From positions 32,001 through 96,000 of IMG/VR virus record IMGVR_UViG_3300018080_000116: DNA of 64,000 bases; one strand, 5' to 3'. Below the pieces are notes generated by a model that had not been told where the DNA came from, did no database searches, and saw only the letters and a list, made by a program, of their open reading frames with translations. Source of the stretch: a virus. Every line of letters begins with the position of its first letter. The stretch's first letter is position 1. A program made the translations under genes and the position numbers. Shown here piece after piece: positions 37,010 through 51,769 of this stretch.

Positions 37010-37095
37010 GGAAACGTCACCACTTAATAACAACCGAGCAAGCCCCGCAAAGCGTTACTACCGGACCATAATAAACCTCATAACAAAGCAGCCTC

Positions 37096-37302
37096 ATGGC
37101 CATCTCTCCCAACGAAATACTCAACAGGCTAATAGGTGACCTGAACGAAGCCCACGATCAATTACTACCAGATGGTAGACAACGTGACTTCGCACGAGCA
37201 CAAGAGGCAAGAGAGACCATCCAGCAGGCACTCAAGAAAGCCAGGAACCTCCAACGCTGCCTCCCTCTCAAACAGTTCGACCCCAATGACCTGGAAGACT
37301 AA
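37096..37302 (+). CDS. small hypothetical protein
   Basis: last ORF before the non-coding block. Confidence 0.65.
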   Translation: MAISPNEILNRLIGDLNEAHDQLLPDGRQRDFARAQEARETIQQALKKARNLQRCLPLKQFDPNDLED

Positions 37303-37350
37303 ACACCATCCAGGGCGTTATTAGGACTGGTGGTGATGACATAGGACAAG

Positions 37351-37889
37351 CCCCACTCGCCGCAGGCGAGTGGGGCAGCGTCCATCTACTCCCAACCACC
37401 ATTTCTAAAACAAAACACCCCTTAATTCACATTCTTATTGTCTCATCAATCAAGCCAAAGTGGGATGGCTGCCCACCTGGGGCCTGAAAGGCTCTAGGAT
37501 CGTGGGAGAGAAGCCCAGATTGGATAAAAACATGGGTTTCAAGCCACAACCCCTTCTCACCGGTTAAGTCCTTGTTGGGACTAGGGCAGGACTAAGGTTA
37601 TTTTGCAGCAGCCATTTATGATCTGAATGGTAGTCCCTGCGCCCTGTTCTACATGATGTTCAACAGACCCGAGCCGAGGGGCGGCGACCGCATGTTCAAC
37701 ACCGGATCGGAATATAAACATTAAGATTCGAGCGGACATAACCCACTCGCCACAGGCGAGTGGGTTTCTTTTAACTTTAACACTATGAGACGCCGCCCAC
37801 CGATTATAAGTCTTATAACTGTCTCATAACTGTTGTTGAACATATTCCAGGCAACGTTATAAGACTCACTCGCCTGCGGCGAGTGAGTC
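37351..37889. repeat. three CACTCGCC-N3-GGCGAGTG palindromes
   Basis: 37351-37375, 37740-37766, 37863-37889 (third is the reverse complement of the first core). Confidence 0.85.
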
Positions 37890-38225
37890 ATGTCCTACAC
37901 CACGAGCACCGATTATATTGAAACTAATTCGACGGCGGGCCTCGGCTATAATGCAATGATGTTGCATATCAGCCGACAGGTGTAAGTCCACCAAGCGTGC
38001 TCCGGGCGTAGCCCGGAGCACGCAGTAGCATGTCCAACACCCTTGGAATCTTATCCAACAAGCACAAAACTTTAATTGAAATGATTCCAAACAAGTCTTT
38101 AAGAGTTGCGGGCCGCATGTCGAACAGAGGCGACGGCGAGGCGGCTTGATCGCTTGGTGTTGAGCGGGAGTTGACTGTCCCACTGCGAAGCAGTGGGACA
38201 GTCAGTCGGCTTGTGCGACGATGTG

Positions 38226-38475
38226 CCGCCCCTATACAACTGGTCTTGTGGATTTTGAGATTTATTATCCGATTTTTGAATTTGGATTTTTGGATTTGCG
38301 GCCTGCGATTTGTTGGACAAGTACAGATGTATGACACACATTGGCGAAACCTACGACAAGATCAGTTGTATATGGGGGCGGCAGGCCGGGCTCCTGGCGG
38401 CTGCGCCGCCAGGAGCTAGAATAAATTTTAGAATTCAGCGAACCCTTTCGGCTGAGCCGTGTATAAGGGGGCGGA
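38226..38475. repeat. control block copy A: GATTT tract, CAG(A/T)TGTATA boxes, TGC-loop hairpin, promoter
   Basis: same order of elements as 44290-44510. Confidence 0.7.
38438..38467 (+). promoter_or_regulatory. class I promoter element
   Basis: GCGAACC-N14-GTGTATAAG. Confidence 0.8.
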
Positions 38476-38567
38476 CCCGAGGTCATAGTCGGGTCCGGGC
38501 CGTCTGCCTGTCGGCCTGCAAAGGGTGCGAACCCCAACAGGCCCCGTTTTCACCCAAGGAGATCGAG

Positions 38568-38843
38568 ATGAGCGACACGAAGACCGCCGTCCGCAATTGG
38601 GACGGCTACGACCATGTTGGTCAGATCATGGCCTACGAGCAGGGCGATCTGGACGACGATCAGGCGATCCGCTTGATCCAGTACCTCGTGGACACCGGTT
38701 TGGCCTGGAGCCTCCAGGGTTCCTATGGCAGGATGGCCCAGAGGATGATCCAGGTGGGCCTCGTCGCCCCTCGGCCCAACCTCGCCCCGCTGTACGGCAG
38801 CGTGGAAGAGTACGTCGAGGACAACGAGTTTCAGCGAGGCTAA
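38568..38843 (+). CDS. small phage protein
   Basis: SD AGGAG; IMAYEQG...LVDTGLAWSLQGSYGR motif recalled from phage proteins, family name uncertain. Confidence 0.8.
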   Translation: MSDTKTAVRNWDGYDHVGQIMAYEQGDLDDDQAIRLIQYLVDTGLAWSLQGSYGRMAQRMIQVGLVAPRPNLAPLYGSVEEYVEDNEFQRG

Positions 38844-38855
38844 GACGATCAGCAG

Positions 38856-38883
38856 GCCCCTCCCCCGCTGGCGGGGGAGGGGC
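38856..38883. terminator. GC-rich hairpin
   Basis: GCCCCTCCCCCGC-tg-GCGGGGGAGGGGC. Confidence 0.6.
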
Positions 38884-38894
38884 AGGAAAAAAGA

Positions 38895-38924
38895 CCGAAC
38901 CTTTTCTGTGGAACTGTGTATAAG
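38895..38924 (+). promoter_or_regulatory. class I promoter element
   Basis: CCGAACC-N14-GTGTATAAG-GGGGCGAACC. Confidence 0.8.
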
Positions 38925-39056
38925 GGGGCGAACCGAGTATTAGTGCCGTGGGGAGTTCACTTCGGGTCGTGTGCCCGTTGGAGCGTTGCGGCTAGTTCGA
39001 CAGGTTTCGAGGCACCTTCTGGCCTGTCATCGCACCTATCCTGAAAGGATGGACCG

Positions 39057-39986
39057 ATGGCAGACCGTACCTACACTCTGACGTTCAATTCCCTGACCCT
39101 GGATACCACGAACCTCCGCATGGACAAGCGAGGGGGTCAGGAGGTCATCGACTACTTCTTCCTCGATGACACGTACACGATCCAGGACGACGAGATCGTC
39201 GATGTCGCCACCTTCCGCAGGTTGCTGGAAGAGGGTGACGAGACGACAATCGTGGAGATCGACGGCGACCGGACGGTGTTGAAGGTCGAGATCGACCTGT
39301 ACCCGATCCACAAGCCCGATCCGCCGACGCTGGCGTGCATGAAGACGCACATGGACGGTGCCCACTGCGGTCTCGGCGACTGGTATGACGAGATCGAGCA
39401 GGGCATCCAGGAGGCGCTGAACCAGGGTCCGGAGCACGAGTGGACGACTGGTTGGTATGCCAGCAAGAAAGAGATCGCTTCCGCCCGGATCACCAATGCC
39501 GAGGGTGGCATCCGGATCGAGGTCTCGGTCTCTGACGACTTCGACACTCCCGGCATGGGCGAGCGAGTCATTCAGCACACCACCGACCTGGAGACGATCC
39601 GGACGGCGATCTACGAAGCGTGGGAGGGTGCAGAGGACGACCAAAAGGACAATCGTGCCTATGCAGGCTACAGCATCCTCACCGAGGTCGATCTGGCTGA
39701 ACATTGGAAGGGGTGCAACGTGTTCCCCGAGCCCAAGGGCAAGGGGCAGGTCTGCATTGACTACTACATCGCTTGTGTGAGTCCGTTTGACGAAGAGTTC
39801 CCGCCCGGCGACAATTATCACGAGTGGGGGTTCCAGGGCGGCAGCGACGACGTACCCAAGCACGTGAGGGACCAGCTTGCCGAATGGGCCGAGCGTCACA
39901 AATATGGTGATGCCGAGGGCGAGTCTCTGACCGTCGAAGGGTACACGATCAAACCCTGGGACGAAAATAAAATTGGAAAAGACTGA
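39057..39986 (+). CDS. acidic hypothetical protein
   Basis: 309 aa; TGA lies inside the next -35 box. Confidence 0.85.
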   Translation: MADRTYTLTFNSLTLDTTNLRMDKRGGQEVIDYFFLDDTYTIQDDEIVDVATFRRLLEEGDETTIVEIDGDRTVLKVEIDLYPIHKPDPPTLACMKTHMDGAHCGLGDWYDEIEQGIQEALNQGPEHEWTTGWYASKKEIASARITNAEGGIRIEVSVSDDFDTPGMGERVIQHTTDLETIRTAIYEAWEGAEDDQKDNRAYAGYSILTEVDLAEHWKGCNVFPEPKGKGQVCIDYYIACVSPFDEEFPPGDNYHEWGFQGGSDDVPKHVRDQLAEWAERHKYGDAEGESLTVEGYTIKPWDENKIGKD

Positions 39987-40012
39987 ACCTTTTAAGAGGG
40001 TCGGTGTATAAG
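39983..40012 (+). promoter_or_regulatory. class I promoter element followed by a 13-bp 5' hairpin
   Basis: CTGAACC-N14-GTGTATAAG, then GGGGCGACGGCAA-ca-TTGCCGTCGCCCC. Confidence 0.8.
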
Positions 40013-40058
40013 GGGGCGACGGCAACATTGCCGTCGCCCCTATCCGAAGGAGAACCCC

Positions 40059-40535
40059 ATGAGCGACCTTTATCGACGCCGGTTGGAAGCACGAGTCAAG
40101 GCAGTCAACCGAGCCCACGCCGAGGCCAATCGCCTGTGTGCCCTGTTTCGAGCCCATTTCACCGATCTGGTGGGCAAGAAGATTCTGACCGTTGACGGCA
40201 ACTTCATGGCCCGAGTCAAGCAGGCGATGCCCGAATTGCCCCATACGGACGGCCTGATGGTGTATCGCTACCGCAGCGAGTATTCTCTGACGTTCGTGGT
40301 CAAGACGAACGAGATGATCGAGGGCGAGCACTCCTGCCTGTACTATGAAGCGTCGTTCGACGTGGGCAACCTGGACGGCCAGAACCTCAAAGAGATCGAC
40401 CAGCGCCCGTGTGAGTACCGGACGGACTTCACGGCGGAAGAGATCGCCGACCTGCGAGCGGATTACCAGCAGAAGCAGAAGATCGCCGACGCTGCCAAAT
40501 CGGCCTTGTACCCCTTTGGCGAGCACGACAGATAA
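40059..40535 (+). CDS. hypothetical protein
   Basis: SD AGGAG. Confidence 0.85.
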   Translation: MSDLYRRRLEARVKAVNRAHAEANRLCALFRAHFTDLVGKKILTVDGNFMARVKQAMPELPHTDGLMVYRYRSEYSLTFVVKTNEMIEGEHSCLYYEASFDVGNLDGQNLKEIDQRPCEYRTDFTAEEIADLRADYQQKQKIADAAKSALYPFGEHDR

Positions 40536-40548
40536 AATTCAGAATTGA

Positions 40549-40579
40549 CCGAACCCTTTGCGGCTGAGCCGTGTATAAG
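40549..40579 (+). promoter_or_regulatory. class I promoter element with rod-like leader
   Basis: CCGAACC-N15-GTGTATAAG; leader stems TGGGAGGC/GCCTCCCA and GCTGGC/GCCAGC. Confidence 0.8.
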
Positions 40580-40685
40580 GGGGCGAACCTGGGAGGCAAC
40601 AAACGGCTGGCGGGTAGATGTGCCCTTCGCATCCTTAGAAAAGCCAGCGGCCTCCCACCTTTCTGTCACTCAGTTGGAGAACCCC

Positions 40686-41687
40686 ATGTCGTATCACGAA
40701 GCCACCCAAGCGTTGGAACGTTGCCTGCTCGACCGTCGTCTGGTCGGCAGCAACCAGTACGTTGTGTCCAGCAGCACGCTGGAACCGGATGGACGCCGCC
40801 GCAAGGCGCTGATCCGCCGCCTTCTCAAGGAAGGCATGATGACCGCCCACGAGCAGGGTATGCTCGATGCCTTCGATCCCACCGACAAGGTGTTGACCGG
40901 CCTGACGCCGGATGTCGTGGACTTCAAGGCCAAGTGGGAAGAGGGTCGTCGTGACCGTGAGGTCCGCTACTACGCTCGTGACCGCTGGTTCATCCGGTTC
41001 GAGGAACTGAGCTACGCCGAGCGGCTGGGCATCCTCGATCTGGCAGGTGAGATGGGGGTCCGCTTCTACGTCGTGGATGGCACGCCGCTGAACTACTCGG
41101 CGAGCCACTATGCCGACGAGCCCGGCATCCAAGAGGATCGAGGCTCGTGCGAGTGGCACGGCCCGTTTGCGACCCTGGATCAGGCTCAGGAGCAGCGGTC
41201 GAAGTGCTACGCTCGCAGCAGTGGTATGCGGTGCGGCTACGAGATTGTGTTCGACACCGAGGAACTGGAAGCCCACATCGACGAAGCCTGCTTCGAGGAA
41301 CGGTTCCAGGAATACTACCCGAAGCTCTTCGCCTGGGCGCTGGTCAAGTGCGGCATCCTGTCCGAAGACGAGGCATACGAGACGTACCAGCAGGGCGACG
41401 AGACCAAGAAGCGCCCGCTGGTGACCGTCGCCGATGGGCACGGTCTCATCATCGGCAACCGAGCCAACGTGTCGGCCAAGCCCGACCAGTGGCAGGCCGA
41501 TGTCACCAAGGGCATCGACCGCCTGATCGACCAGATCGCCCAGGCCCAGGCCAAGCTGGAACTGTATCGCAAGATCGAGAAGGGGCTGGCGGCATACGTC
41601 GGTGGGTTCGCACAGTTCCTCGAAGACTACAAGGGACACCTGCGGACGGCCTTGCAGCAGGAAGACAACGAAGCCGAAGCAGCCTGA
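40686..41687 (+). CDS. hypothetical protein ending in -EAA
   Basis: SD GGAG; C-terminal coiled coil. Confidence 0.85.
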   Translation: MSYHEATQALERCLLDRRLVGSNQYVVSSSTLEPDGRRRKALIRRLLKEGMMTAHEQGMLDAFDPTDKVLTGLTPDVVDFKAKWEEGRRDREVRYYARDRWFIRFEELSYAERLGILDLAGEMGVRFYVVDGTPLNYSASHYADEPGIQEDRGSCEWHGPFATLDQAQEQRSKCYARSSGMRCGYEIVFDTEELEAHIDEACFEERFQEYYPKLFAWALVKCGILSEDEAYETYQQGDETKKRPLVTVADGHGLIIGNRANVSAKPDQWQADVTKGIDRLIDQIAQAQAKLELYRKIEKGLAAYVGGFAQFLEDYKGHLRTALQQEDNEAEAA

Positions 41688-41705
41688 TTGGGGAGTTGCA
41701 ACCCT

Positions 41706-41733
41706 GAGCCCCCGGCCCTTGGGCCGGGGGCTC
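41706..41733. terminator. hairpin (CCCGGCC family)
   Basis: GAGCCCCCGGCCC-tt-GGGCCGGGGGCTC. Confidence 0.65.
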
Positions 41734-41768
41734 CTTCTAAGTTCGGATGTATAACGGAGCCCCATACC

Positions 41769-41909
41769 ATGACAGCCAACAGGTTCAACGCCCTTTGTTG
41801 CGAAGCCCTAGTCCACCCGGCGATTGCTCTTGAGAACGAAGAGATCGTCGAGGCATTGCGGCAGAGGAATGACGCCAGGGTCGAGGCCCTGTTGCGAGAG
41901 GAATTCTAA
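41769..41909 (+). CDS. 46-aa protein
   Basis: SD ACGGAG; TAATG coupling; preceded by variant box CGGATGTATAAC. Confidence 0.7.
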   Translation: MTANRFNALCCEALVHPAIALENEEIVEALRQRNDARVEALLREEF

Positions 41910-42097
41910 TGATCCAGGTACTTGAAGCCCAGTCCGACCGGTTTCGCATCGTCATGCAGATCGGTGCATTGTACGCCAGCATCAATCTCAAGACAGGCCA
42001 GTGTCAGACCACGAGCGGCGATATGTGGTTCGACAGCGACCTGGACGAAGTTGTGGGCATGATCCGCCACGAGCGGAGCATCCGGAGGGCAGCATGA
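41909..42097 (+). CDS. small protein ending in -RRAA
   Basis: TAATG/ATGA coupling. Confidence 0.75.
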   Translation: MIQVLEAQSDRFRIVMQIGALYASINLKTGQCQTTSGDMWFDSDLDEVVGMIRHERSIRRAA

Positions 42098-42315
42098 AGA
42101 TCGTAGTCGGCGACTCAGTTCGCCAAGCAACGTACCCTGAGGGTCGTCAGTTCGGCCCGGTACGCACGGTCACATCAACCGACCGAAAGCCCGGCCAGTT
42201 CGGCGAGCAAGCCTTCTGGTGTGGCAACCTGGGCCTGACGACATTGTGTGCCGTCAAGGTCGAGCCCCAAAGGAGAGACCATGATCTTAGGCAGCAGCCA
42301 CCACAAGAACACTGA
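42094..42315 (+). CDS. small hypothetical protein
   Basis: ATGA overlap. Confidence 0.65.
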   Translation: MKIVVGDSVRQATYPEGRQFGPVRTVTSTDRKPGQFGEQAFWCGNLGLTTLCAVKVEPQRRDHDLRQQPPQEH

Positions 42316-42469
42316 GCGCACCATCCCCATCGAATGTGAGCCGGGCGGCGGCTACATCATACTGACCGCCGACGAGTTCGACCGACTCCAGCAGGGCGAG
42401 CCGGTCAAGAAGCGTAGCGGCGACTGCCGTGGCGACTTCGAGATTGTCGCCCAAATAGTTCGAAAATAA
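42281..42469 (+). CDS. small hypothetical protein
   Basis: SD AGGAG; TAA directly abuts CCGAACC. Confidence 0.75.
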   Translation: MILGSSHHKNTERTIPIECEPGGGYIILTADEFDRLQQGEPVKKRSGDCRGDFEIVAQIVRK

Positions 42470-42500
42470 CCGAACCCTTTCCCCACCAGCCGTGTATAAG
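42470..42500 (+). promoter_or_regulatory. class I promoter element
   Basis: CCGAACC-N15-GTGTATAAG. Confidence 0.8.
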
Positions 42501-42512
42501 GGGGCGACCCCA

Positions 42513-42535
42513 GGATACATCCGTAGGATATATCC
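42513..42535. repeat. two GGATNNATCC boxes, 13-bp period
   Basis: GGATACATCC 42513 and GGATATATCC 42526, just downstream of the promoter. Confidence 0.7.
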
Positions 42536-42559
42536 CACTCAGTCAGGAGAGACTCGCAC

Positions 42560-42820
42560 ATGTCCCATCCCACCGCCCAAGAGGTCGCAGACATCCTCAG
42601 TAGCTTTGTCAATGGCATGAGGAGCGACGACGTGGCAGAACTGGTCGATCTGATGCAGCGTGACCACCCGACCTTGGTCACCAACAAGGGCCGACTTTTT
42701 CTGGCCTTCTTCGAGGCCGGAACTGATGACAACGGCGACCTGCGGCGTGAGGCCCTGGCCAAGCTATCCCAGGCCATTGCCGATCTGCCGGTCGAGGTAA
42801 AGCACCTACCGTACATATGA
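42560..42820 (+). CDS. small hypothetical protein
   Basis: SD AGGAG. Confidence 0.8.
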   Translation: MSHPTAQEVADILSSFVNGMRSDDVAELVDLMQRDHPTLVTNKGRLFLAFFEAGTDDNGDLRREALAKLSQAIADLPVEVKHLPYI

Positions 42821-42853
42821 TCCTTTCTCCTTGACTGGGTGACAGGGACGTAG

Positions 42854-42879
42854 GGGCCCGGCCCACCAGGGCCGGGCCC
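42854..42879. terminator. hairpin (CCCGGCC family)
   Basis: GGGCCCGGCCC-acca-GGGCCGGGCCC. Confidence 0.55.
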
Positions 42880-42919
42880 TGAACCCCGCACCACAAGCAC
42901 CACATTACTGGAGATCACC

Positions 42920-43951
42920 ATGGCCAGGAAAAAGAAGAAGAGAGATGGGCGAGAGATCAGGGCAGAGATTCAGAAGGAGATGACCGAGCGAATTGTGCAG
43001 GCCATCAAGGACGGCAAGCCGCCCTGGCGCAAGCCCTGGAGCAGCAGCCCGAACGCTGGTTGGCCGAAGAACATTGCCAGCAAGAAGCCGTACCGTGGCA
43101 TGAACCCCTTGCTGTTGACCTGTACGTGCATGGACTACGGCTACGATAGCTGTTGGTGGGGCACGTACAAGCAGTGGGGCGACCTGGGATGTCAGGTCAA
43201 GAAGCGGCCCGACGATGTGGAGTATTGGGGCACGAGGATCGTCTACTGGAGCCCGGTGCAGAGCACCCGCCCCAAGGACAAGGACGACCCGGACGGCGAG
43301 CGTGAGAAGTTCACGTGGTTCATGCTCAAGACCTACACGGTGTTCAACCTGGAGCAGGTTGACGACCCGGACGGCAAGCTTGAGAAGTTCGTCATCGACA
43401 AGGAGAAGCCCCAGATCGCCCCCGAGGCCATCGAAGACCCGGTGTTCGATATGGCTCGTGAGGTGATCGCTGCCACCGGTGCCAAGATCAGCCATGGTGG
43501 CGACCGAGCTTTCTACCGATTGCCCCAGCCCTACGAGGACTGGCCGAACCACAAGAGTGGTGACACGATCCGGCTGCCCAAGCCCGAGACCTTCGTGGCA
43601 CCTCAAGATTACTACTACACGGCCTTCCACGAGCTAGGGCACTGGAGCGAGGTGCGTCTGGGCCAGAAGGATGAGAAGTACGCCTTCAACGAACTGGTTG
43701 CTGAAATGGCGTCCTGCTTCATGGCCTCAGCATGTCAGATTCCGCAGTCCGATGTGATGGACAATCACGAGCGCTACATGGCCTCGTGGTTGGGCCGGAT
43801 GGGCGACGACCCGTCCTTCATCTTCAAGGCCAGCACGCTCGCAGCAAAGACCACTGAGCACCTGCTGAGCTACAGCGGCCACGAGGATGTGATCGGCGGT
43901 CAGCATGGCACTAAGGAGCTTGAGGGCGAGGAGCAGGCAGCCGCCGCTTAA
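42920..43951 (+). CDS. ardC: ArdC-like ssDNA-binding/antirestriction protein (DUF1738 plus zincin-like domain)
   Basis: PPWRKPW...P.N..SKKPYRGMN.L.L, WGTYKQW..LG.QVKK, YTVFNLEQ, FHELGHWS, YAFNELVAEMAS. Confidence 0.9.
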   Translation: MARKKKKRDGREIRAEIQKEMTERIVQAIKDGKPPWRKPWSSSPNAGWPKNIASKKPYRGMNPLLLTCTCMDYGYDSCWWGTYKQWGDLGCQVKKRPDDVEYWGTRIVYWSPVQSTRPKDKDDPDGEREKFTWFMLKTYTVFNLEQVDDPDGKLEKFVIDKEKPQIAPEAIEDPVFDMAREVIAATGAKISHGGDRAFYRLPQPYEDWPNHKSGDTIRLPKPETFVAPQDYYYTAFHELGHWSEVRLGQKDEKYAFNELVAEMASCFMASACQIPQSDVMDNHERYMASWLGRMGDDPSFIFKASTLAAKTTEHLLSYSGHEDVIGGQHGTKELEGEEQAAAA

Positions 43952-43961
43952 GAAGGGAAGG

Positions 43962-43993
43962 AGATCTCGCCCGGCCTGGGCCGGGCGAGATCT
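43962..43993. terminator. hairpin (CCCGGCC family)
   Basis: 15-bp stem AGATCTCGCCCGGCC/GGCCGGGCGAGATCT. Confidence 0.65.
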
Positions 43994-44289
43994 TGATACT
44001 CATCATGAAAAAGTATTGGTTCAAGACATCGAGTGGTTCAGTCGTGGGCATGCATGGTTTTGGTGAGGTGAATGCCCTGGCGAACCTAAGGCACTGTCTG
44101 CCGCAGATCGAGGTTGTGTACAGGTGTGACAGCGAGGGCAACCCAAGGAGGATCTGCGAGGACTAGTATATAGCAGAACAATGGTGCTGCGAGCGGATCG
44201 ATGGGAGTGGTGCCCCAGAAGGACCGACCTGCTCGCCTCTAGAAGCCCGCTGGGATGGCATGGCCTCCAGCGGGCTTTCTTCATGCGCA

Positions 44290-44510
44290 ATTTGTGAGAT
44301 TTATTCTGGATTTTTCTTTTTTGGATTTTCGAATTGATCTCGGGATTTTTCATTTGCGCAGTGGGATTTTAGTCCAGATGTATAACACGTGGTTGGCCTG
44401 GACGGTTTTAAGTGCAGATGTATAAGGGGGCGGCACCGCCGAGCCGGGTGCCCTGGCGGCTGCGCCGCCAGGGCACCGAACCTTTCGGCGTCGAGCCGTG
44501 TATAAGGGGG
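44290..44510. repeat. control block copy B
   Basis: GATTT tract, CAGATGTATAA boxes at 44375 and 44415, hairpin 44447-44477, promoter. Confidence 0.7.
44476..44506 (+). promoter_or_regulatory. class I promoter element
   Basis: CCGAACC-N15-GTGTATAAG. Confidence 0.8.
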
Positions 44511-44561
44511 CGATCCGGCTGGTGCCGGGTGGCACCGGCCACTGACAAGGAGGCCCAAGCC

Positions 44562-44705
44562 ATGACTATGCAAGAACTGAACGACCTGAGCCGCAGGCAG
44601 TTGGAGGCCGAGGCGATCCGCCGTGGCTACCGTCCCGACCCGGACGACACCGACGAAGACCTGCGGAGCGTGATCCACCAGCGAGACCAAAGGAAGGCAG
44701 CATGA
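44562..44705 (+). CDS. 47-aa protein ending in -KAA
   Basis: SD AGGAGG. Confidence 0.75.
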   Translation: MTMQELNDLSRRQLEAEAIRRGYRPDPDDTDEDLRSVIHQRDQRKAA

Positions 44706-44983
44706 TCGTACCGAACGGCGACGAGGCGTATGCCCTGTCCGAGCGATATGACGAGCCGAGCGAGGCTGATCTGTTCGACGTGGACGATGCCCAGGCGATC
44801 AAGGCCAGCAACCGGCAGGCCAAGGTGGGCACCAGGGTGATCTGCCCGACCTGCGGTTGCCGGTTCACGAAGCGATCCTATCAGCACGTGTTCTGCCGGT
44901 CCAAAGGCCGAGGGAACTGCAAGGATCGGTTCCACAACCTCGCCAGCCCGGAGCGACTGGCGAGGGCCAGGGCGTGGTCCTAG
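44702..44983 (+). CDS. small Zn-finger protein
   Basis: CPTCG.RF...FC...C. Confidence 0.8.
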   Translation: MIVPNGDEAYALSERYDEPSEADLFDVDDAQAIKASNRQAKVGTRVICPTCGCRFTKRSYQHVFCRSKGRGNCKDRFHNLASPERLARARAWS

Positions 44984-45156
44984 TACATGAACCGCTGCGC
45001 CTTGATCTTCGCTTGCAGGTCGAGGCGGCGATCTTCGTCGCCGTCTTCGTCCATCCGCATTAGATCGTCAACCTCGTGCCACTCCAGGCCGCAGTAGGTG
45101 CAGCCGAGGTCACGGAAGTCAACTGGCAGGGGTTGGCAGCATCGTGGGCAACGCAT
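44980..45156 (-). CDS. 58-aa Zn-ribbon protein (not in ORF track)
   Basis: hand translation MRCPRCCQPLPVDFRDLGCTYCGLEW...RFMY*; SD GGAG; stop overlaps that of 44702..44983. Confidence 0.7.
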   Translation of the reverse strand: MRCPRCCQPLPVDFRDLGCTYCGLEWHEVDDLMRMDEDGDEDRRLDLQAKIKAQRFMY

Positions 45157-45251
45157 TGTATTCTCCGGGTTAGAGTGTTGGGCGAGCGACCTGCCCGCCC
45201 TTCACTTCCCTTTAGGCACCTGCGGCGGCAAGAAATAAAAAGAAAATTAGA

Positions 45252-45281
45252 CCGAACCTTTTTTGATCTTGTGTGTATAAG
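45252..45281 (+). promoter_or_regulatory. class I promoter element driving the ORF-less RNA cassette
   Basis: CCGAACC-N14-GTGTATAAG. Confidence 0.8.
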
Positions 45282-45474
45282 GGGGCGAACGGTGGGTGAG
45301 CAGCCCCGCAAGTCGCAGCAAGGCACGCTGCGAGCCGTCCCAGGCCGACCCGCTGACGAGGCAAACAGGCCATTCACTGATCCCCGCTCGTCTCAACCGT
45401 TATCAGTGTGGGTTGAGTGGTGTAAGGCGCAAGCCAGGGGGCACACCCAACATGGCGTTGGGAGGTACGAGGGT

Positions 45475-45543
45475 TCGATCATGGTGTAGTGGTAGCACAC
45501 CGGCGTGCAGCCGGAAGTATGGGTTCGAGTCCCATTGATCGTC
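45475..45543 (+). tRNA. aberrant tRNA-like gene (His-like body, 5-nt anticodon loop GTGCA, no CCA)
   Basis: acceptor CGATCA/TGATCG, D arm GTGT-AGTGGTA-GCAC, AC stem CCGGC/GCCGG, T arm ATGGG-TTCGAGT-CCCAT, discriminator C. Confidence 0.65.
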
Positions 45544-45724
45544 TTATCTGCGGTACGACTGCTGGCCCAGAGAGGTCAGCAGGTAGGGAATAGAGTCCTG
45601 TAGGAGTGCGAGATCGCTGCTGTGTACGAGGTGGGGAACCCGGCACGAGTGGCCCTTTGAGCCTACAGGTGAATACCGGAGAACGTCAGCCCCGTGGCGT
45701 TGAGCGTACCAACGAAACATGATT

Positions 45725-45853
45725 CGCTGCTTTGTGGTGTAATGTCAGCACTCTCGCCTTGAGTACCCGAGTCCGAGCCCCTGGTCATGCGGAGGGCAGA
45801 CGACTCGGCGAAATTGGCGGGGGGTCCGGGTGCATAGTCCCGGCTGAGCGGCG
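45725..45853 (+). tRNA. tRNA-like cloverleaf with a 57-nt structured insert replacing the anticodon loop
   Basis: acceptor 45725-34/45844-53, D arm GTGT-AATGTCA-GCAC, stem CTCGCC/GGCGGG, T arm CCGGG-TGCATAGT-CCCGG. Confidence 0.55.
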
Positions 45854-45867
45854 TTTTAAAAATTATG

Positions 45868-45897
45868 CCGAACCCTTTTCAGTTTGGCGTGTATAAG
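45868..45897 (+). promoter_or_regulatory. class I promoter element
   Basis: CCGAACC-N14-GTGTATAAG. Confidence 0.8.
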
Positions 45898-45935
45898 GGT
45901 GCGAACATCACGCACCTTTTAACGGAGTGGTCCCC

Positions 45936-46298
45936 ATGCTGAATCGAAAGATTGCCCTTTACGTCCCTGGCACAACTGACGTGAACGTGCCCGCCCCCGA
46001 GCAGCAGGCAGCCGCCGTTGTCCATGCTCTCGAACAGTTCGCCGAGTGGTTCGGTGGGGCGACCGTGATCGACGGTCAAGGGGCGTGGATGAGCGACGAA
46101 CACGGTCTCGTGGTCGAGCCCGTCCGCATCGTCTACTGCTTCACCGACGCCGAGGGATTGGCCAAGCATCTGAGTGAAGTCAAGCTGTTGGCCCGGCACG
46201 TCTGCCGAGCCATGTCCCAAGAGTGTGTCAGTCTGGAAGTGGCTGGCGAGTTGCAGTTCATCGAAGTCGCCGAGGTCGCCGACGAGAAGGTGGCCTAG
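45936..46298 (+). CDS. DUF3574-like/P-II-fold-like small protein
   Basis: FGGATVIDGQGAW...EP..IV...SQECV pattern; family tentative. Confidence 0.55.
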   Translation: MLNRKIALYVPGTTDVNVPAPEQQAAAVVHALEQFAEWFGGATVIDGQGAWMSDEHGLVVEPVRIVYCFTDAEGLAKHLSEVKLLARHVCRAMSQECVSLEVAGELQFIEVAEVADEKVA

Positions 46299-46308
46299 TG
46301 TCCCATCT

Positions 46309-46337
46309 GAGCCCCCTGGGCATCGCCCAGGGGGCTC
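46309..46337 (+). terminator. hairpin plus T run
   Basis: GAGCCCCCTGGGC-atc-GCCCAGGGGGCTC-TTT. Confidence 0.7.
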
Positions 46338-46370
46338 TTTGAGTGTCCCCTGACCAACGGAGCCAAAACC

Positions 46371-46634
46371 ATGAAGTCGCACGCACGCCCCCGTCTGGCA
46401 GCCGAGACGATTCCGCCGTTGACCGGTGCCTCGGTGATCCAGCCCGGCCACCCGTACTACACTCAGTACGTCAAGTGGCTCGAAGCCCGCAAGGCCGAGC
46501 TAGGCCCCGAGGCAGCCGTGAGCAACAAGCGCAAGGGGCGTTTGTTCTTGGCAGCCCATCCGCACCTGAAGCGCTGTTGGGAAGGCGTGATCCTTCACGC
46601 CCGCCGAATCGAGGCCGAGAAAAAAGCAGCATAA
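46371..46634 (+). CDS. small protein ending in -KKAA
   Basis: SD ACGGAG. Confidence 0.8.
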   Translation: MKSHARPRLAAETIPPLTGASVIQPGHPYYTQYVKWLEARKAELGPEAAVSNKRKGRLFLAAHPHLKRCWEGVILHARRIEAEKKAA

Positions 46635-46636
46635 GA

Positions 46637-46666
46637 CCGAACCCTTTTTCGTTTCGTGTGTATAAG
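46637..46666 (+). promoter_or_regulatory. class I promoter element with rod-like leader
   Basis: CCGAACC-N14-GTGTATAAG; leader stem GAGCAGAAC/GTTCTGCTC. Confidence 0.8.
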
Positions 46667-46769
46667 GGGGCGAACCGAGCAGAACGAAAGACCGGAACAA
46701 GACTAAACAGGTTTGGTTATTCCTGGTTCTGCTCTTTCCTAACCCCCATTCCTTACGGAGACCCGGATC

Positions 46770-47504
46770 ATGTTGCGAAGCGTCGAGAAGCCCAATTCCC
46801 CCGTCCTGTCCGACCCCTTGTTCATCATGGCCATCGTGCCGATCCTCGCCGCCTTCCGCCGCATGGGCGAGCGGATCGCCGATCTGGTGGCCGTCGAAGA
46901 TGACAACCTCGAACCCGTGTTCGACAAGCGGATCGAGCAAAACAACCTGGGCGTGGTCGTCGATGGCCTGTCGCCCGTGGTGATCGAGACCGCCCGCTAT
47001 TCGATGCGAGTCGGCGGCAAGCTGGTTGTCAGTGCCGAAGCCAAGTCCCTGCTGGTCGATGGCGAGTTGTACGACTTCGACATGACTTGTGCGTGGCATC
47101 CCCAGGTCGAAGTCGAAATGCAGGCCCTCTTGAAGCGCCTGAACGTCCCGATCCTCTTGTTGATGGCAGGTCTCGGCTACAACCTGCGGCCCCGCCACGA
47201 GGTCATTCCCGGCCTGCTGGTGATCCACCTGGGCCAGAAGAAGGTCGAGCCCAATTCCGCCGCACAGGCCCCCTTCCGGCCCGCTGAGGCCGCTTCCGAT
47301 GGCCCGAGCGTCATGTACCCCGGCCACCACAACGAGGGCTACCAGCCCGCCCAGGAGCCCGTGCGTTGCTCCTGCCAGGACGACAACCCCTCGTGGGACG
47401 GCCCGAGCAACTGTGCCGGTTGCGAGAACTTCGCCATCTGCCACCCGGCAGCCGCCGCCGAGGCCAACGTGTTCGTGGGAGAGCCGCTTCGCAAGGCCGC
47501 ATGA
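46770..47504 (+). CDS. hypothetical protein ending in -RKAA
   Basis: SD ACGGAG; Cys cluster near C-terminus. Confidence 0.85.
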   Translation: MLRSVEKPNSPVLSDPLFIMAIVPILAAFRRMGERIADLVAVEDDNLEPVFDKRIEQNNLGVVVDGLSPVVIETARYSMRVGGKLVVSAEAKSLLVDGELYDFDMTCAWHPQVEVEMQALLKRLNVPILLLMAGLGYNLRPRHEVIPGLLVIHLGQKKVEPNSAAQAPFRPAEAASDGPSVMYPGHHNEGYQPAQEPVRCSCQDDNPSWDGPSNCAGCENFAICHPAAAAEANVFVGEPLRKAA

Positions 47505-47516
47505 TCCGGCCCGGCT

Positions 47517-47550
47517 TGCCTGCCGCCGCCCGGCGCAGCGGCGGCAGGCA
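47517..47550 (+). terminator. hairpin
   Basis: 13-bp stem TGCCTGCCGCCGC/GCGGCGGCAGGCA. Confidence 0.6.
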
Positions 47551-47571
47551 GCCATTTATTTTAGAATTAGA

Positions 47572-47601
47572 CCGAACCTTTGCCCGCCATCTGTGTATAA
47601 G
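47572..47601 (+). promoter_or_regulatory. class I promoter element
   Basis: CCGAACC-N14-GTGTATAAG. Confidence 0.8.
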
Positions 47602-47643
47602 AGGGCGAACAAAGTTTCTGTCCCCAACCTTACGGAGAACCTC

Positions 47644-48420
47644 ATGTCCAACGCACCCATCCAGTACGTGACCGAGAACGAGTTGATCGGCATTTTGACC
47701 CGGATCAACACCGCCCAACCCTTCGGCGTGGTCGCCCTGACCATGCCCTCGTGCTTCTCGACTCGCAGGGGCGGCAGCCGCAAGAAAACGGAGCCGCTCT
47801 GCCCGCCCGTGATGAAGCGGCAGCGTGTCAGCGGCATCAGCAACTTCGATTACCTGCGCAGCCGCAACAACGACAACGCCCGTGAGTGGTCCCGGCAGGT
47901 CGAAGCGCTGAAGGCCGAGGGCAAGACCAAAGAGGCGGCAGACCTGGAACAGCAGGGGCCGGAACAGCACGAGTTGGGCAGCCGCAGCGACGACCGTGAG
48001 CGGATCGAGGGCACCGTCCTGGTCCGCCGCCCGTCCACCGGCCACGTCTACCTGCAAATGATGATCCCGACCGGCCATCACCCCTCGTGGCCCAAGGGTC
48101 GCCACGAAACGAGCTACTGTTACCTGCCCGATCATCGTGGCCTGCTGCTGGAAAGCTACGCCAAGGGCAAGCCGAGCAAGGCCCATGCCGAGGCGTACCC
48201 CGAGCACGTGTTGGCAGCCATACCCGCCGTCGAGTACAGCCTGGAAGGCGATGGCGATGAAAGCCTCGCCGACTGGCTCAAGCCGTACAAGCGGCGAGAC
48301 GACGAGCCGCACGACTTCGACTACCGTGAGTACCGCTTCGATCATATCCTCGAAGTGCGTGCCGAGGGCATCCGCTACATCGTCCGCCGTGGCGAGGAAG
48401 CCCAGGCGAAGACCGCATAA
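47644..48420 (+). CDS. hypothetical protein
   Basis: SD ACGGAG; 258 aa. Confidence 0.85.
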   Translation: MSNAPIQYVTENELIGILTRINTAQPFGVVALTMPSCFSTRRGGSRKKTEPLCPPVMKRQRVSGISNFDYLRSRNNDNAREWSRQVEALKAEGKTKEAADLEQQGPEQHELGSRSDDRERIEGTVLVRRPSTGHVYLQMMIPTGHHPSWPKGRHETSYCYLPDHRGLLLESYAKGKPSKAHAEAYPEHVLAAIPAVEYSLEGDGDESLADWLKPYKRRDDEPHDFDYREYRFDHILEVRAEGIRYIVRRGEEAQAKTA

Positions 48421-48434
48421 CGGTTTGGGGACCG

Positions 48435-48476
48435 GCCCGGCTGCGTGATAAGGAGCGCAGCCGGGCACTCTTTTTT
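48435..48476 (+). terminator. intrinsic terminator
   Basis: GCCCGGCTGCG/CGCAGCCGGGC plus T6. Confidence 0.75.
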
Positions 48477-48511
48477 GCACCGCAAGTTCGCATGTATAAC
48501 AGGACACGACC

Positions 48512-48754
48512 ATGCTGAAATCAAGCGACCCCAACAACACCGAAGACCTTGTTTCGATCTTCAACGAGTGGGCCGAAAACACGTTTGTGTGGCCCGCTGG
48601 CCACGAGCCCCAAATGACATCGTTTTTTGAGCACGGCCAGTGGTGGGTGCAAGACATCAACAGCGATGCCACCTGGAGCGTCGTAGATGCGGAAGGTGGC
48701 GATGCCGTCGCCGGTTACAGTTTCGAGCAGATCACCGATGGGGAACTGGCATGA
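48512..48754 (+). CDS. small acidic protein
   Basis: FEHGQWWV...WSVVDAEG; preceded by variant box GCATGTATAAC. Confidence 0.8.
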   Translation: MLKSSDPNNTEDLVSIFNEWAENTFVWPAGHEPQMTSFFEHGQWWVQDINSDATWSVVDAEGGDAVAGYSFEQITDGELA

Positions 48755-49014
48755 CACTGGACCCCACCGACGAACGCCGAGCCGAACACGGCCACCTAAC
48801 ACCAGCCCAACATGAAGCCCTGATGGAAGCCTGTGTGCAGGTGTATATGGCGGCGGATGGCATCGAGACCGTCCCCGAGTATGCCGCCCGAGCCGCCCTG
48901 GCAGGCGAAGGGCCAGACACGCTCGCCGCCATGCTGCCCGACGACACCGATCACTGCCGCCGCCTGGGCGTCAACTTCGATCCCGAAACCGGAGAGGAAT
49001 GGCCCGATGAATAA
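48751..49014 (+). CDS. small hypothetical protein
   Basis: ATGA overlap. Confidence 0.75.
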   Translation: MTLDPTDERRAEHGHLTPAQHEALMEACVQVYMAADGIETVPEYAARAALAGEGPDTLAAMLPDDTDHCRRLGVNFDPETGEEWPDE

Positions 49015-49357
49015 CGTAGACAGCAGCCACGTGCAGATCACCGTCACCTGCGAGCGCTGCGGCCACACCTGGGACGTTGAAGACTATGATGCCCTGAGTG
49101 TGCAGGCCGCTGAGCAGGCCGCAAGGGAAGCCGAGTGCCAGAACTGCAACGCCACGTCCCGGCAGGTGAGGTTCTACAACATCAAGTGGGACACCACCGA
49201 CGACGATCACCCGGACGGCCAGGACGTGGATCTGCCCGACGACGTGACCCTCGAAGTCGATGGCGACGTGGACCTGGACACCGAGGGTGCCGACGTGCTC
49301 AGCGACAAATACGGCTGGTGCGTGTTCAGCTTCGACTATGAAGAGACCGAACCTTAG
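49007..49357 (+). CDS. Zn-ribbon/acidic protein
   Basis: CERC..CQNC; final TEP* encoded by the next promoter. Confidence 0.8.
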   Translation: MNNVDSSHVQITVTCERCGHTWDVEDYDALSVQAAEQAAREAECQNCNATSRQVRFYNIKWDTTDDDHPDGQDVDLPDDVTLEVDGDVDLDTEGADVLSDKYGWCVFSFDYEETEP

Positions 49358-49377
49358 CGCCCCTTCGTGTGTATAAG
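49347..49377 (+). promoter_or_regulatory. class I promoter element
   Basis: CCGAACC-N15-GTGTATAAG. Confidence 0.8.
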
Positions 49378-49396
49378 GGTGCGAAAGGAAACCACC

Positions 49397-49762
49397 ATGC
49401 AAGAGATCAGCGCCTTTGCCATTCTGATCGCCAGCGACGGCGAGCCCATTCGAGTCCACCCCCAGATGGCCGGTGTGAAAACCGGCTTCGCCCGGATCGG
49501 CAACCCCTACTTCGACGGCGATCCCGATTGGCGACTCAAGGACGGCAACACCGTCATCGAGTGCCAACCCAGCGACTCCAGGGCGATCCCCGTGGCCGAT
49601 GCCTACCAGAAACTACGAGCAGCCTGGGAGGCGGAAGCGGCTGAACTCCAGGCCGAGGAAGAGGCGTGGGAACGTGAGTGGGCCGAGCGCAACGAACAAC
49701 GCAGGTGGGACGAAACCATCGGCCACCTGTACCTCATCCAAGATCGTTTAATGGGAATCTAA
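49397..49762 (+). CDS. hypothetical protein
   Basis: TAA directly abuts CCGAACC. Confidence 0.8.
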   Translation: MQEISAFAILIASDGEPIRVHPQMAGVKTGFARIGNPYFDGDPDWRLKDGNTVIECQPSDSRAIPVADAYQKLRAAWEAEAAELQAEEEAWEREWAERNEQRRWDETIGHLYLIQDRLMGI

Positions 49763-49792
49763 CCGAACCTTTTGCGGCGAACTGTGTATAAG
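49763..49792 (+). promoter_or_regulatory. class I promoter element
   Basis: CCGAACC-N14-GTGTATAAG. Confidence 0.8.
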
Positions 49793-49932
49793 AGTGCGAA
49801 AGGACGCCACCATGCTTTACTCAGTCCCCTACCGACGAACGGACGGCAGCCTCGACAGCTATTTTCTGTTCACCAACAGACAGCCCCCGGAAGGGGCCAG
49901 CCCCGTTCTGATCCCCAACAAGGAACCCAAAC

Positions 49933-50358
49933 ATGAGCCAGCCGACTTATCGAAGGCTGCCTGACGGCAGCGTGACCGTGGATGCACCCGGCACCTGCGG
50001 CAAGCCGTTCGCCAACGTCCTGCGGATCGTCGAAGACGACAACGCCAACCCCGGCATCAAGATCACCACGTCCAGCGGCATCGTGGGTAGCAACCTGCTG
50101 CGGCAGGTGCTCGCCGACCTGGAGTCTGGCGATTACCTGCTCAAGATGACCGAGGGCGGACCCGAGCCCCCTCGCCCCTCGATCACCGTCCGGTGGGGCA
50201 GCGAGAGCACCCGCAAAGACAACCCCGACCTGGAAGACGGCGACAAGTTCGAGTTCGACACCGAGGCCGAGGTCAACGCCTTCACCGAAGCACTCGCCGC
50301 CGCCGATGGATGGGCCGAGTGGGAGATCATCGAACCGGAGGACGAGACCACCAACTGA
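49933..50358 (+). CDS. acidic hypothetical protein
   Basis: 141 aa; SD AAGGA. Confidence 0.8.
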   Translation: MSQPTYRRLPDGSVTVDAPGTCGKPFANVLRIVEDDNANPGIKITTSSGIVGSNLLRQVLADLESGDYLLKMTEGGPEPPRPSITVRWGSESTRKDNPDLEDGDKFEFDTEAEVNAFTEALAAADGWAEWEIIEPEDETTN

Positions 50359-50485
50359 ACACCACCACCGCAGCCCGGTGGCACCTAACCAAAGCCCGCA
50401 CCCAAGGGTGTGCGTGAGCAGGGGGTGAGGCCGAACACATAAAGCCTCATGGGCCTGCAACCAGTACAACCTCTTTTCTCCTGAG

Positions 50486-50517
50486 CGCCCACCGGCCCGA
50501 GGCCGGTGGGCGTTTTT
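50486..50517 (+). terminator. intrinsic terminator
   Basis: CGCCCACCGGCC/GGCCGGTGGGCG plus T5. Confidence 0.75.
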
Positions 50518-50531
50518 ATTTTCAAATTACA

Positions 50532-50562
50532 CCGAACCCCAGGCAGGCGAGCCGTGTATAAG
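50532..50562 (+). promoter_or_regulatory. class I promoter element
   Basis: CCGAACC-N15-GTGTATAAG. Confidence 0.8.
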
Positions 50563-50582
50563 GGGGCGAAAGGAACAATGCC

Positions 50583-51056
50583 ATGACCAAGCAACTGACC
50601 CTCATCGACAACGACTTCACCATCGACAAGCGGTTCGTGCTTGGTGGCAAGGCCGTCTTCACGGTCTCGAACAACAAGGGTCAGCACTACACCTACTTGG
50701 TGCAGCACAAGCCCGCCGACGACAAGTACCCCGAGGCGTACTTCGTCCGGTTGCTGACCGGCCCGGACAACATGGGCGATTACACGTACCTGGGCAAGCT
50801 CGACCAGCGTACCGGTTTCATGCAGTTGTCCCCCAAGAGCAAGATGAACGCCGACTCCCTGCCGGTCAAGGTCGTCCGCTGGGCATTGGCAAGGGTTATC
50901 TGGCCCGAGGCCCAGGTGCCCGAGGGCTACGGCATCCACGGCGAGGGTCGCTGCGGTCGCTGTGGTCACCCTCTCACTCACCCCGATGGGGTCAGCCCCG
51001 AGGGTCACCGGTTCGGATTCGGCCCGACCTGCTGGGCCAAACTCGTTGGAGGCTAA
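50583..51056 (+). CDS. DUF6011-domain protein
   Basis: C-terminal CGRCGHPLTHP......GFGPTCWAK. Confidence 0.7.
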   Translation: MTKQLTLIDNDFTIDKRFVLGGKAVFTVSNNKGQHYTYLVQHKPADDKYPEAYFVRLLTGPDNMGDYTYLGKLDQRTGFMQLSPKSKMNADSLPVKVVRWALARVIWPEAQVPEGYGIHGEGRCGRCGHPLTHPDGVSPEGHRFGFGPTCWAKLVGG

Positions 51057-51057
51057 G

Positions 51058-51106
51058 AGATCAATCCCAGCGATATATCCCACCGATGTATCCTGGGGAA
51101 GTATCC
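51058..51106. repeat. four NGANNNATCC boxes with exact 13-bp period
   Basis: AGATCAATCC 51058, CGATATATCC 51071, CGATGTATCC 51084, GGAAGTATCC 51097. Confidence 0.75.
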
Positions 51107-51139
51107 TGCGTTCTGTCCCTTAAACCTACGGAGATCATC

Positions 51140-51481
51140 ATGCAGTTTGTCGCCCACCCGCCCCGTCGCCTGCGTTCCCACCTGCGGCGTCTCGCCCAGG
51201 CCCAGGCCCTCCCGCTGCTGCTGGTTGGCCCGAAGCACACCGGCATCCGCCACGGCTACTGGTACGCCACGATCTACAACGGCCTGCTCGTGGCCATCAC
51301 CAAGAAGCCGGTCGCCACCAGGGACGAGGGGCGTGGCCCCGAGGCCCTGCACCGGTTCGGTCGCAAGGCCAGCGAGTACCGTGTGCGGAGCGGCAGCTAC
51401 GTGCAGGCCCAGGTCATCGAGGGCGGCAAGAAGGTCGCCCCCAAGTGGGACGCCCGCACCGGTCGCCGGATCGCCGCCTAG
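51140..51481 (+). CDS. basic protein ending in -RIAA
   Basis: SD ACGGAG. Confidence 0.8.
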   Translation: MQFVAHPPRRLRSHLRRLAQAQALPLLLVGPKHTGIRHGYWYATIYNGLLVAITKKPVATRDEGRGPEALHRFGRKASEYRVRSGSYVQAQVIEGGKKVAPKWDARTGRRIAA

Positions 51482-51530
51482 AATCGTCTGTGCGGCCCGC
51501 TGAGGTACTTTCACCCCCGGAGGCAACACC

Positions 51531-51731: not shown

Positions 51732-51739
51732 TGATCCCC

Positions 51740-51769
51740 AGACCCACCGGGCAGCCGCCCGGTGGGTCT
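51740..51769 (+). terminator. hairpin
   Basis: AGACCCACCGGGC-agcc-GCCCGGTGGGTCT. Confidence 0.65.

Follow-up and report, generated by a model that had tools for sequence, protein, structure and literature searches.

The closest known system to the promoter-like array described here is the set of PeSL and PmSL (promoter early and promoter middle stem-loop) cassettes of the T4-type phages RB49/phi1, T4/PST and KVP40/nt-1 (Arbiol et al. 2010, PMC2839356; Comeau et al. 2014, PMC4122927). The array is carried by the IMG/VR virus contig IMGVR_UViG_3300018080_000116 (G000; 138,192 bp), of which bases 32001-96000, a stretch of 64,000 nucleotides termed the window, were analyzed. Its repeat unit, type A, has the form CCGAACC-N14-GTGTATAAG and, unlike PeSL cassettes, carries no sigma70 consensus. 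The 18 sites in the window, and 22 in the whole contig, probably constitute a single phage-specific promoter class that is likely to be read by a phage-encoded sigma factor and to provide homology patches between gene cassettes.

Several phage promoter systems offer points of comparison. Promoters dependent on phage sigma factors include those of SPO1 gp28 and gp33/34 and of T4 gp55; T4 late promoters carry TATAAATA at -10, have no -35 element and are found ahead of late and structural genes. T4 middle promoters have a MotA box (TGCTT) at -30 and go with the MotA and AsiA genes. Among bacterial promoters, those of extracytoplasmic function (ECF) sigma factors combine a -35 GGAAC with a -10 of the CGT/GTC type. 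The promoter recognized by gp36 of phage phiEco32 has the sequence AATGTA centered at -11.5 (PMC12276001).

Exact copies of GTGTATAAG number 18 in the window and 23 in the contig, all on the + strand and none on the minus strand. A tolerance of one mismatch gave 24 matches, again all +, against 4.7 ± 2.0 in shuffled sequence. GAACC, mostly as CCGAACC, lies upstream of 22 of the 23 copies, at a distance from GTG of 14 nt (14 sites), 15 nt (seven sites) or 12 nt (one site, 17806), and the hexamers CGAACC and TATAAG are 17 or 18 bp apart. The remaining copy, at contig position 29972, is intragenic and has no -35 box. GTG and the G at -7 are invariant in all 23 copies. An A/T-rich tract is located upstream of the box at the -35 position, and in most copies the -10 element is followed by a GGGGCGAAC-like sequence (profile GTGTATAAGGGgGcGaac). 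The type A profile holds about 30 bits of information on the -35 side and about 34 bits on the -10 side. An earlier note on this DNA had listed 18 such elements, all of which were found on the + strand with box starts at the positions given there, including the variants GCGAACC (38438) and CTGAACC (39983); the 13 that it had assigned to 12 kb occupy 12.1 kb, in which most genes have no family match. Scanning the whole contig added four full copies upstream of the window.

All 22 full sites are co-oriented with genes and lie 19 to 132 nt before starts led by a Shine-Dalgarno (SD) sequence, apart from one that precedes a tRNA instead. At three copies, leaders of 19 to 20 nt run directly into AAGGA-N-ATG. 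Upstream genes had been described as ending exactly at or inside the element, and the stops at 39986, 42469, 49357, 49762 and 13745 do so; a TEP terminus, claimed for two of the proteins, belongs to the one that stops at 49357 (...TEP) and not to the one that stops at 13745 (...TEPS). The 50 nt upstream of the sites are more structured than control positions (Mann-Whitney U test, p = 8.5e-5). Terminators consisting of a hairpin and a T-run precede the sites with GTGTATAAG at 3025, 47593 and 50554, and a strong hairpin without a clear T-run lies before that at 38459. Overall, a strong upstream hairpin is present at about 7 of the 18 sites and many copies have none, while hairpins in the 5' leader occur at several sites without overall enrichment.

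Because the distance between the two halves is fixed while the spacer sequence varies, the element points to protein-DNA geometry rather than to an RNA signal, and where a terminator lies directly ahead of a site, transcription must begin anew. The proposal of the earlier note that the repeats are promoters is strongly supported by their placement and orientation, by their geometry, by the terminators upstream and by the equivalent signals of related phages. In order, their parts would be an A/T-rich, UP-like tract, the (C)CGAACC box at the -35 position, a spacer of 17 or 18 bp, GTG-TATAAG and a discriminator rich in G; the probable transcription start is the A of GCGAAC, some 7 nt beyond the -10 element. 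Each site would open a message of one to three genes (in one case a tRNA) within a GC-rich, hypervariable accessory block, and the units that follow a terminator hairpin, about a third, would be transcriptionally insulated. The reader is probably the host core RNA polymerase with a phage-encoded sigma70-family factor rather than with the host primary sigma factor. The term "early region," used previously for this block, is an assumption, and middle-class genes are more likely if a phage sigma factor is needed.

CheckV puts the completeness of the contig at 27%, from which a genome size of about 500 kb follows. Relatives of its baseplate wedge protein number >190 in IMG/VR contigs; among them are fragments of 225 to 340 kb and the 595-kb GenBank sequence LR756511.1, and G000 is part of the genome of an uncultured huge phage related to T4. 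G000 has three parts: about 75 kb of + strand genes, most of them small (9.5-86 kb), a minus-strand block and a + strand tail/baseplate module. Type A is confined to the first, with no copy in the minus-strand block or the structural module. The small-gene block is hardly conserved in relatives, and the structural module is conserved. The GC content of the 13-promoter cluster is 58.5-63.6% versus 54-57% in the remaining + strand block. Along the window, GC content is 58-64% at positions 38000-52000, 53-57% elsewhere in the + strand block and some 50% from 54 kb onward, where the genes are on the minus strand. The high GC content of the cluster gives rise to long antisense shadow open reading frames (ORFs) in gene calling, e.g., 39036-40526 on the minus strand (496 aa), which were rejected in favor of SD-led + strand ORFs with homologues.

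Megablast of the window against GenBank phages gave no match, and no close relative of G000 came out of a search with a cassette protein. When IMG/VR and JGI metagenome contigs were scanned for the exact motif, the only matches were unrelated singletons; two metagenome contigs with one exact full-motif match each (L028 and L029) were dismissed as chance, having no blastn or tblastx similarity to G000. Comparison was made at the level of the clade, with seven related huge phages, G001, G002, G003, G006 (64% complete), G007 (50% complete), G008 and LR756511.1; G008 and G009 are one and the same sequence and provide no second sister pair. The strand-specific word with the strongest over-representation in each of these relatives is a promoter-like signal 10 to 80 nt ahead of small genes, and its copies are packed into arrays (Table 1). 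The sequences differ between lineages and have (T/G)G-TA(C/T) as a common core. Those ahead of orthologous genes, GTGTACCCTAG or AGTCCAGGTGTATAAC, have no -35 box. In G002, bases 1-140 of contig L135 consist of nine tandem copies of a 15-nt unit, CAGGTGTACAGTAGC, its version of the promoter core; this run could be a real array or an assembly artifact.

Five G000 genes directly behind type A sites have orthologues directly behind the relative's own motif. Their order is shuffled between genomes, and some are single genes that in both genomes have motifs on either side and unrelated neighbors. Comparison of the motifs suggests that the CCGAACC box and the A/T tract are specific to the G000 lineage and that GTG-TATAAG is the lineage version of a clade-wide, phage-specific TGTA(C/T) element. 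Type A thus appears to retain the -10-proximal half of the clade motif, the -35 box and A/T tract replacing the abutting upstream half of the AGTCCAG type. In this respect the "hybrid" promoter of the earlier note survives as a clade -10 element joined to a lineage-specific -35 box, and not as a hybrid of sigma70 and ECF promoters.

A related second motif class, missed in the earlier note, is also present in the region. This type B, AGTNCAG-ATGTATAA(C/G), is represented in G000 by about eight sites of the G001 form, AGTNC(A/G)G-ATGTATAA(C/G), with the upstream half abutting, and one of them shares the GGGGCGG downstream part with type A. The persistence of G001-form sites in G000, together with the retention of the clade core, suggests that type A is a lineage-specific derivative. 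Both types meet in two regulatory hubs (Table 1), which are paralogues of about 230 to 280 bp with the same hairpin, CTGGCGGCTGCGCCGCCAG. Divergent, minus-strand type B-like sites occur at about 38239 and 53045. A separate, sigma70-like class, TTTACA(AT)-N17-TACAAT(T), has five + strand copies, at window positions 1058, 8567 and 28196 (contig 33058, 40567 and 60196) and at contig positions 10858 and 30411; these are possibly the true host-dependent early promoters.

Table 1. Promoter-like sites, associated genes and counterparts in related phages (window coordinates unless a genome is named)
Feature	Position	Strand	Context
Type A (CCGAACC-N14-GTGTATAAG)	3004-3033	+	Terminator hairpin and T-run just upstream; then gene 3067-4140
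Type A	12136-12165	+	Perfect 5' hairpin from about +1; then gene 12217-12459
Type A (N15)	13732-13762	+	Upstream stop 13745 in spacer; then gene 13787-14056
Type A, short spacer (N12)	17806-17833	+	Then gene 17885-18595
Type A	21100-21129	+	Gene 21176-21865; its G001 and G003 orthologues each follow the motif of their own genome
Type A (GCGAACC)	38438-38467	+	After hairpin CTCCTGGCGGC/GCCGCCAGGAG; precedes DUF7417 gene 38568-38843
Type A	38895-38924	+	Then gene 39057-39986 (309 aa, no family match)
Type A (CTGAACC)	39983-40012	+	TGA of box is upstream gene's stop; then gene 40059-40535
Type A (N15)	40549-40579	+	Then gene 40686-41687 (333 aa, no family match)
Type A (N15)	42470-42500	+	Upstream stop ends at 42469; then 42560-42820 and ArdC gene 42920-43951
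Type A (N15)	44476-44506	+	After hairpin CCCTGGCGGC/GCCGCCAGGG; then genes 44562-44705 and 44702-44983
Type A	45252-45281	+	ORF-less unit with tRNA-Ala(UGC) 45475-45543
Type A	45868-45897	+	Then gene 45936-46298 (PHROG 3543)
Type A	46637-46666	+	Then gene 46770-47504
Type A	47572-47601	+	After strong hairpin 47516-47551; then gene 47644-48420
Type A (N15)	49347-49377	+	Upstream gene (...ETEP) stops at 49357, inside; 19-nt leader (GCGAAAGGA...ATG); gene 49397-49762
Type A	49763-49792	+	Upstream stop ends at 49762; 19-nt leader to ATG 49812
Type A (N15)	50532-50562	+	After terminator 50483-50515 and T-run; gene 50583-51056 (DUF6011)
Type B (TAAGTTCGG-ATGTATAAC)	41738-41755	+	13 nt before ATG 41769; form matches G001 motif
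Type B (TTAGTCCAG-ATGTATAAC)	44369-44386	+	Near-identical to G001 consensus AGTCCAG-GTGTATAAC
Type B (TAAGTGCAG-ATGTATAAG-GGGGCGGCA)	44409-44435	+	-10 and downstream part in common with type A
Type B (CAAGTTCGC-ATGTATAAC)	48483-48500	+	After terminator 48435-48466; ATG 48512 next
Type B (TGAGTGCGG-ATGTATAAG)	52962-52979	+	7 nt before ATG 52987; divergent minus-strand partner at about 53045
Hub 1	38200-38480	+	Terminator, phased T-tracts (GGATTTTT), degenerate type B at 38320 and 38358, hairpin, type A at 38438
Hub 2	44290-44520	+	Order of parts as in hub 1; 75% mean column identity (pairwise alignment)
ArdC-type anti-restriction protein	42920-43951	+	ArdcN and zincin peptidase domains (1.1e-32 and 2.6e-26); PHROG 7245 (1.5e-61)
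tRNA-Ala(UGC)	45475-45543	+	ARAGORN; Rfam, 51 bits
Orthologue pair	40059-40535		G003 266800-267270 (E = 1e-40); motifs on both sides in both genomes
Orthologue pair	45927-46298		G003 288926-289261, behind G003 motif
Orthologue pair	47644-48420		G001rc 36880-37536, behind G001 motif
Orthologues	38568-38843 and 21176-21865		Both match G001rc 30022-30564
G003 motif (TAGGTCCA-GTGTACCC-TAGTGGGTGT)			46 copies in 27.5 kb
G001 motif (AGTCC(A/C)G-GTGTATAAC)			43 copies in 32.5 kb
G002 motif (CCAG-GTGTACAGTAG)			About 10 copies, nine in one tandem run at contig end
G006/G007 motif (TTTCTTT-TTGGTACGG)			21/17 copies
G008 motif (TTAAT-TGTATTTTT)			22 copies
LR756511.1 motif (CAG-CTGTAC)			44 copies versus 0 for reversed control; strand follows gene direction

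A candidate for the reading sigma factor is encoded 14 kb upstream of the window, at contig positions 17957-19174. The search for a phage sigma factor identified this divergent, 405-aa protein of the sigma70 family through PHROGs and a family profile; a direct Pfam search of the fragment gave no Sigma70_r2, r4 or r4_2 match above the cut-off. Its match to PHROG 351 is weak. Eight homologues were found, two of them with a precomputed Sigma70_r2 assignment, the closest being P0002 and P0003 (65-66% identity), and Pfam Sigma70_r2 matches seven of the nine family members. The family profile matches region 2 of sigma-H in the PDB (E = 7.6e-7). An AlphaFold model of modest confidence (predicted local distance difference test score, 61.7) has sigma chains for nearly all of its top Foldseek matches, over the full length and with a probability of 0.97. 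Profile and model together indicate a sigma factor with a sigma2-to-sigma4 layout, which is a candidate reader of type A. Neither the protein nor its profile led to an encoding locus among IMG/VR contigs. The gene lies between ParB-like and RuvB-like genes, with a strong hairpin between parB and the sigma gene and no promoter motif directly ahead. G003 encodes a sigma factor of the 405-aa type and three more Sigma70_r2 ORFs (48055, 62531, 156410 and 197435 for the four), a number suggestive of a cascade of sigma factors in these huge phages.

The sites could instead be early promoters of the usual kind, recognized by the primary sigma factor of the host; the unusual -35 box and the G at -7 would then reflect the particular host or kinetic selection. 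This is unlikely, although the 17- or 18-bp spacer, the match of TATAAG to TATAAT at five of six positions, the A/T tract at the UP position, the G-rich discriminator and early-looking cargo (ArdC anti-restriction and small ORFans, i.e., ORFs without relatives) would all fit. The -35 box agrees with TTGACA at only two of six positions, a generic sigma70 scan detected none of the type A sites, and at -7 the T needed by sigma70 gives way to G in every one of the 23 copies, all of which also have an invariant GTG. The TTTACA-N17-TACAAT class shows that a distinct sigma70-like signal exists in G000, and in the relatives the orthologous genes follow motifs that have no -35 box at all. The same comparison bears on a host ECF-type stress sigma factor switched on by infection, which we regard as very improbable. 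GAAC, an ECF hallmark, is at the -35 position in 22 of 22 full copies, and since no ECF-size sigma factor was detected in the fragment (27% of the genome), the factor would have to come from the host; the -10 element, however, is TATAAG rather than the CGT/GTC type, and relatives without a GAAC box still have motifs ahead of orthologous genes. Activation of the T4 middle kind finds no counterpart, as the TGCTT MotA box is not present at type A sites. Neither AsiA nor MotCF (MotA) scored above the cut-off in five clade genomes, a weak negative, as the controls for both families were silent.

An RNA polymerase encoded by the phage or injected with the virion, as in N4, crAss-like and P23-45 phages, would, as reader of the sites, account for the long, contiguous motifs (about 18 to 26 nt) of the relatives, which resemble promoters of single-subunit polymerases. 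A 3,820-aa, Ala/Gly/Leu-rich ORF without assigned function lies in the tail module outside the window (contig 115080-126542) and was considered as a hidden virion polymerase; it matches nothing in Pfam, PHROG or the PDB, lacks a DxDGD-type motif and was rejected. No T7-like or multisubunit (Rpb1-type) RNA polymerase domain was found in five clade genomes, although the PF00940 control was silent and the search is weak for very divergent polymerases. As the G000 form also shows the classic -35/-10 geometry of sigma-type promoters, we give this explanation little credence. It is equally hard to credit that the repeats are not promoters but RNA-processing sites or integron-like sites of cassette recombination. 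One element per small co-oriented gene, and a gene order shuffled between relatives, are features of integron arrays; yet the bipartite form with fixed distance and free spacer sequence is a signature of DNA geometry, and copies stand directly after terminators. The type A repeats contain no attC-like inverted repeats, a search of the fragment (27% of the genome) found no tyrosine integrase (PF00589), and an Rfam scan returned the tRNA only.

A promoter class read by a phage sigma factor is preferred, together with a probable role of the repeats in cassette exchange. Because type A copies are direct repeats of 40 to 60 bp in intergenic sites, they very probably also act, in a passive way, as homology patches for the gain, loss and reshuffling of cassettes, in the manner of PeSL, and a junction role in G000 is plausible. 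The motif-bounded single orthologues found in shuffled order in distant relatives lend this indirect support. The pattern expected of such patches was seen in G006 and G007, which are 95-98% identical: 15 of the 128 boundaries of their alignment blocks fall within 12 nt of a motif copy (0.94 expected), as do 11 of 36 in the hypervariable region (2.2 expected). When the null admits intergenic positions only, 7 of 20 boundaries are at a motif against 11.6% expected (p = 0.0055). In one example, a 259-bp unit between two motif copies in one genome corresponds to a single copy in the other.

Several observations weigh against this combined reading. The enrichment of breakpoints comes from another lineage with a different motif, and some of it is to be expected, since indels are viable only if they end between genes; within G000, no paralogous cassettes were found. 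The sigma factor and the motif are tied by co-occurrence, and G006 and G007 have arrays but no detectable Sigma70_r2 or sigma factor of the 405-aa family in their 64%- and 50%-complete genomes. TATAAG, the spacer of 17 or 18 bp and the A/T tract could be read by the primary sigma factor of whatever host the phage infects. It would also be odd for an ArdC anti-restriction gene not to be expressed immediately on entry, as the need for a phage sigma factor would entail. Finally, the promoter assignment is itself a prediction from sequence.

Taken one step further, the clade of ~500-kb T4-related phages might possess a private transcription code for accessory genes, in which a phage sigma factor reads a TGTA(C/T) -10 element with flanks that have diverged into near-invariant barcodes of each lineage. 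In G000 one sigma factor would accept two architectures (an abutting, extended -10-like AGTNCAG half or a CCGAACC box), and the barcoded promoters, serving also as homology patches, would confine cassette exchange to phages with the same code. We put this forward tentatively, as a speculation that is somewhat doubtful at present.

The cargo of the cluster consists of ArdC, DUF7417 and DUF6011 proteins and mostly of ORFs without a family. The tRNA-Ala unit is the sole promoter unit without an ORF, and about 190 nt before and 310 nt after the tRNA carry no assigned feature.

To our knowledge, nothing has been described about how uncultured huge phages schedule transcription. For one large clade, the arrays supply a promoter code that is explicit and can be tested, as well as a candidate sigma factor, and they mark ArdC, DUF7417, the tRNA and many ORFans as one putative regulon. 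The motifs also help to annotate gene starts and operons in metagenomic genomes and are a possible source of orthogonal promoter/sigma pairs.

Among known systems, integron and superintegron arrays resemble G000 in that each small co-oriented gene of a variable accessory region has its own repeat, and differ in that the G000 repeat is 5' of each gene and has promoter geometry, without attC symmetry or an integrase in the fragment. ECF promoters share the GAAC core at -35 and differ in the -10 element. The promoters of phage-encoded sigma factors likewise have a near-invariant, phage-specific -10 element with TGTA or TATAA that is unlike the host consensus, in phages that encode a sigma factor. 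In G000 this element is accompanied by a -35 box and an UP-like tract, canonically spaced, and it serves accessory and small genes rather than late structural ones; the T4 late promoter sequence has no occurrence in G000. The 405-aa protein, with its sigma2-to-sigma4 layout, is set beside gp36, gp28 and gp55 as a phage sigma factor, and no kinship with them is claimed.

PeSL promoters are sigma70-like (TTGACA/TTTACW-N17-TATAAT type), whereas those of G000 have CCGAACC and GTG-TATAAG with G at -7 and probably depend on a phage sigma factor. A clear stem-loop, which in PeSL cassettes is adjacent and can terminate upstream transcription, accompanies only about a third of the G000 copies, and the G000 clade consists of ~500-kb uncultured phages. 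In PeSL cassettes, insertion, deletion and replacement breakpoints between close relatives fall in the elements, and exchange between neighboring elements forms mini-circles; for G000, recombination of this kind is a possibility. The two systems share repeated, co-oriented intergenic promoter motifs preceded by an A/T tract, a lineage-specific consensus, and a location in a hyperplastic region of small ORFans in a T4-related phage. The indel breakpoints of G006 and G007 at their own motif are a further likeness. The PeSL idea, that repeats serve both as expression signals and as shuffling points, would thus extend to phage-specific promoters and to genomes about three times larger.

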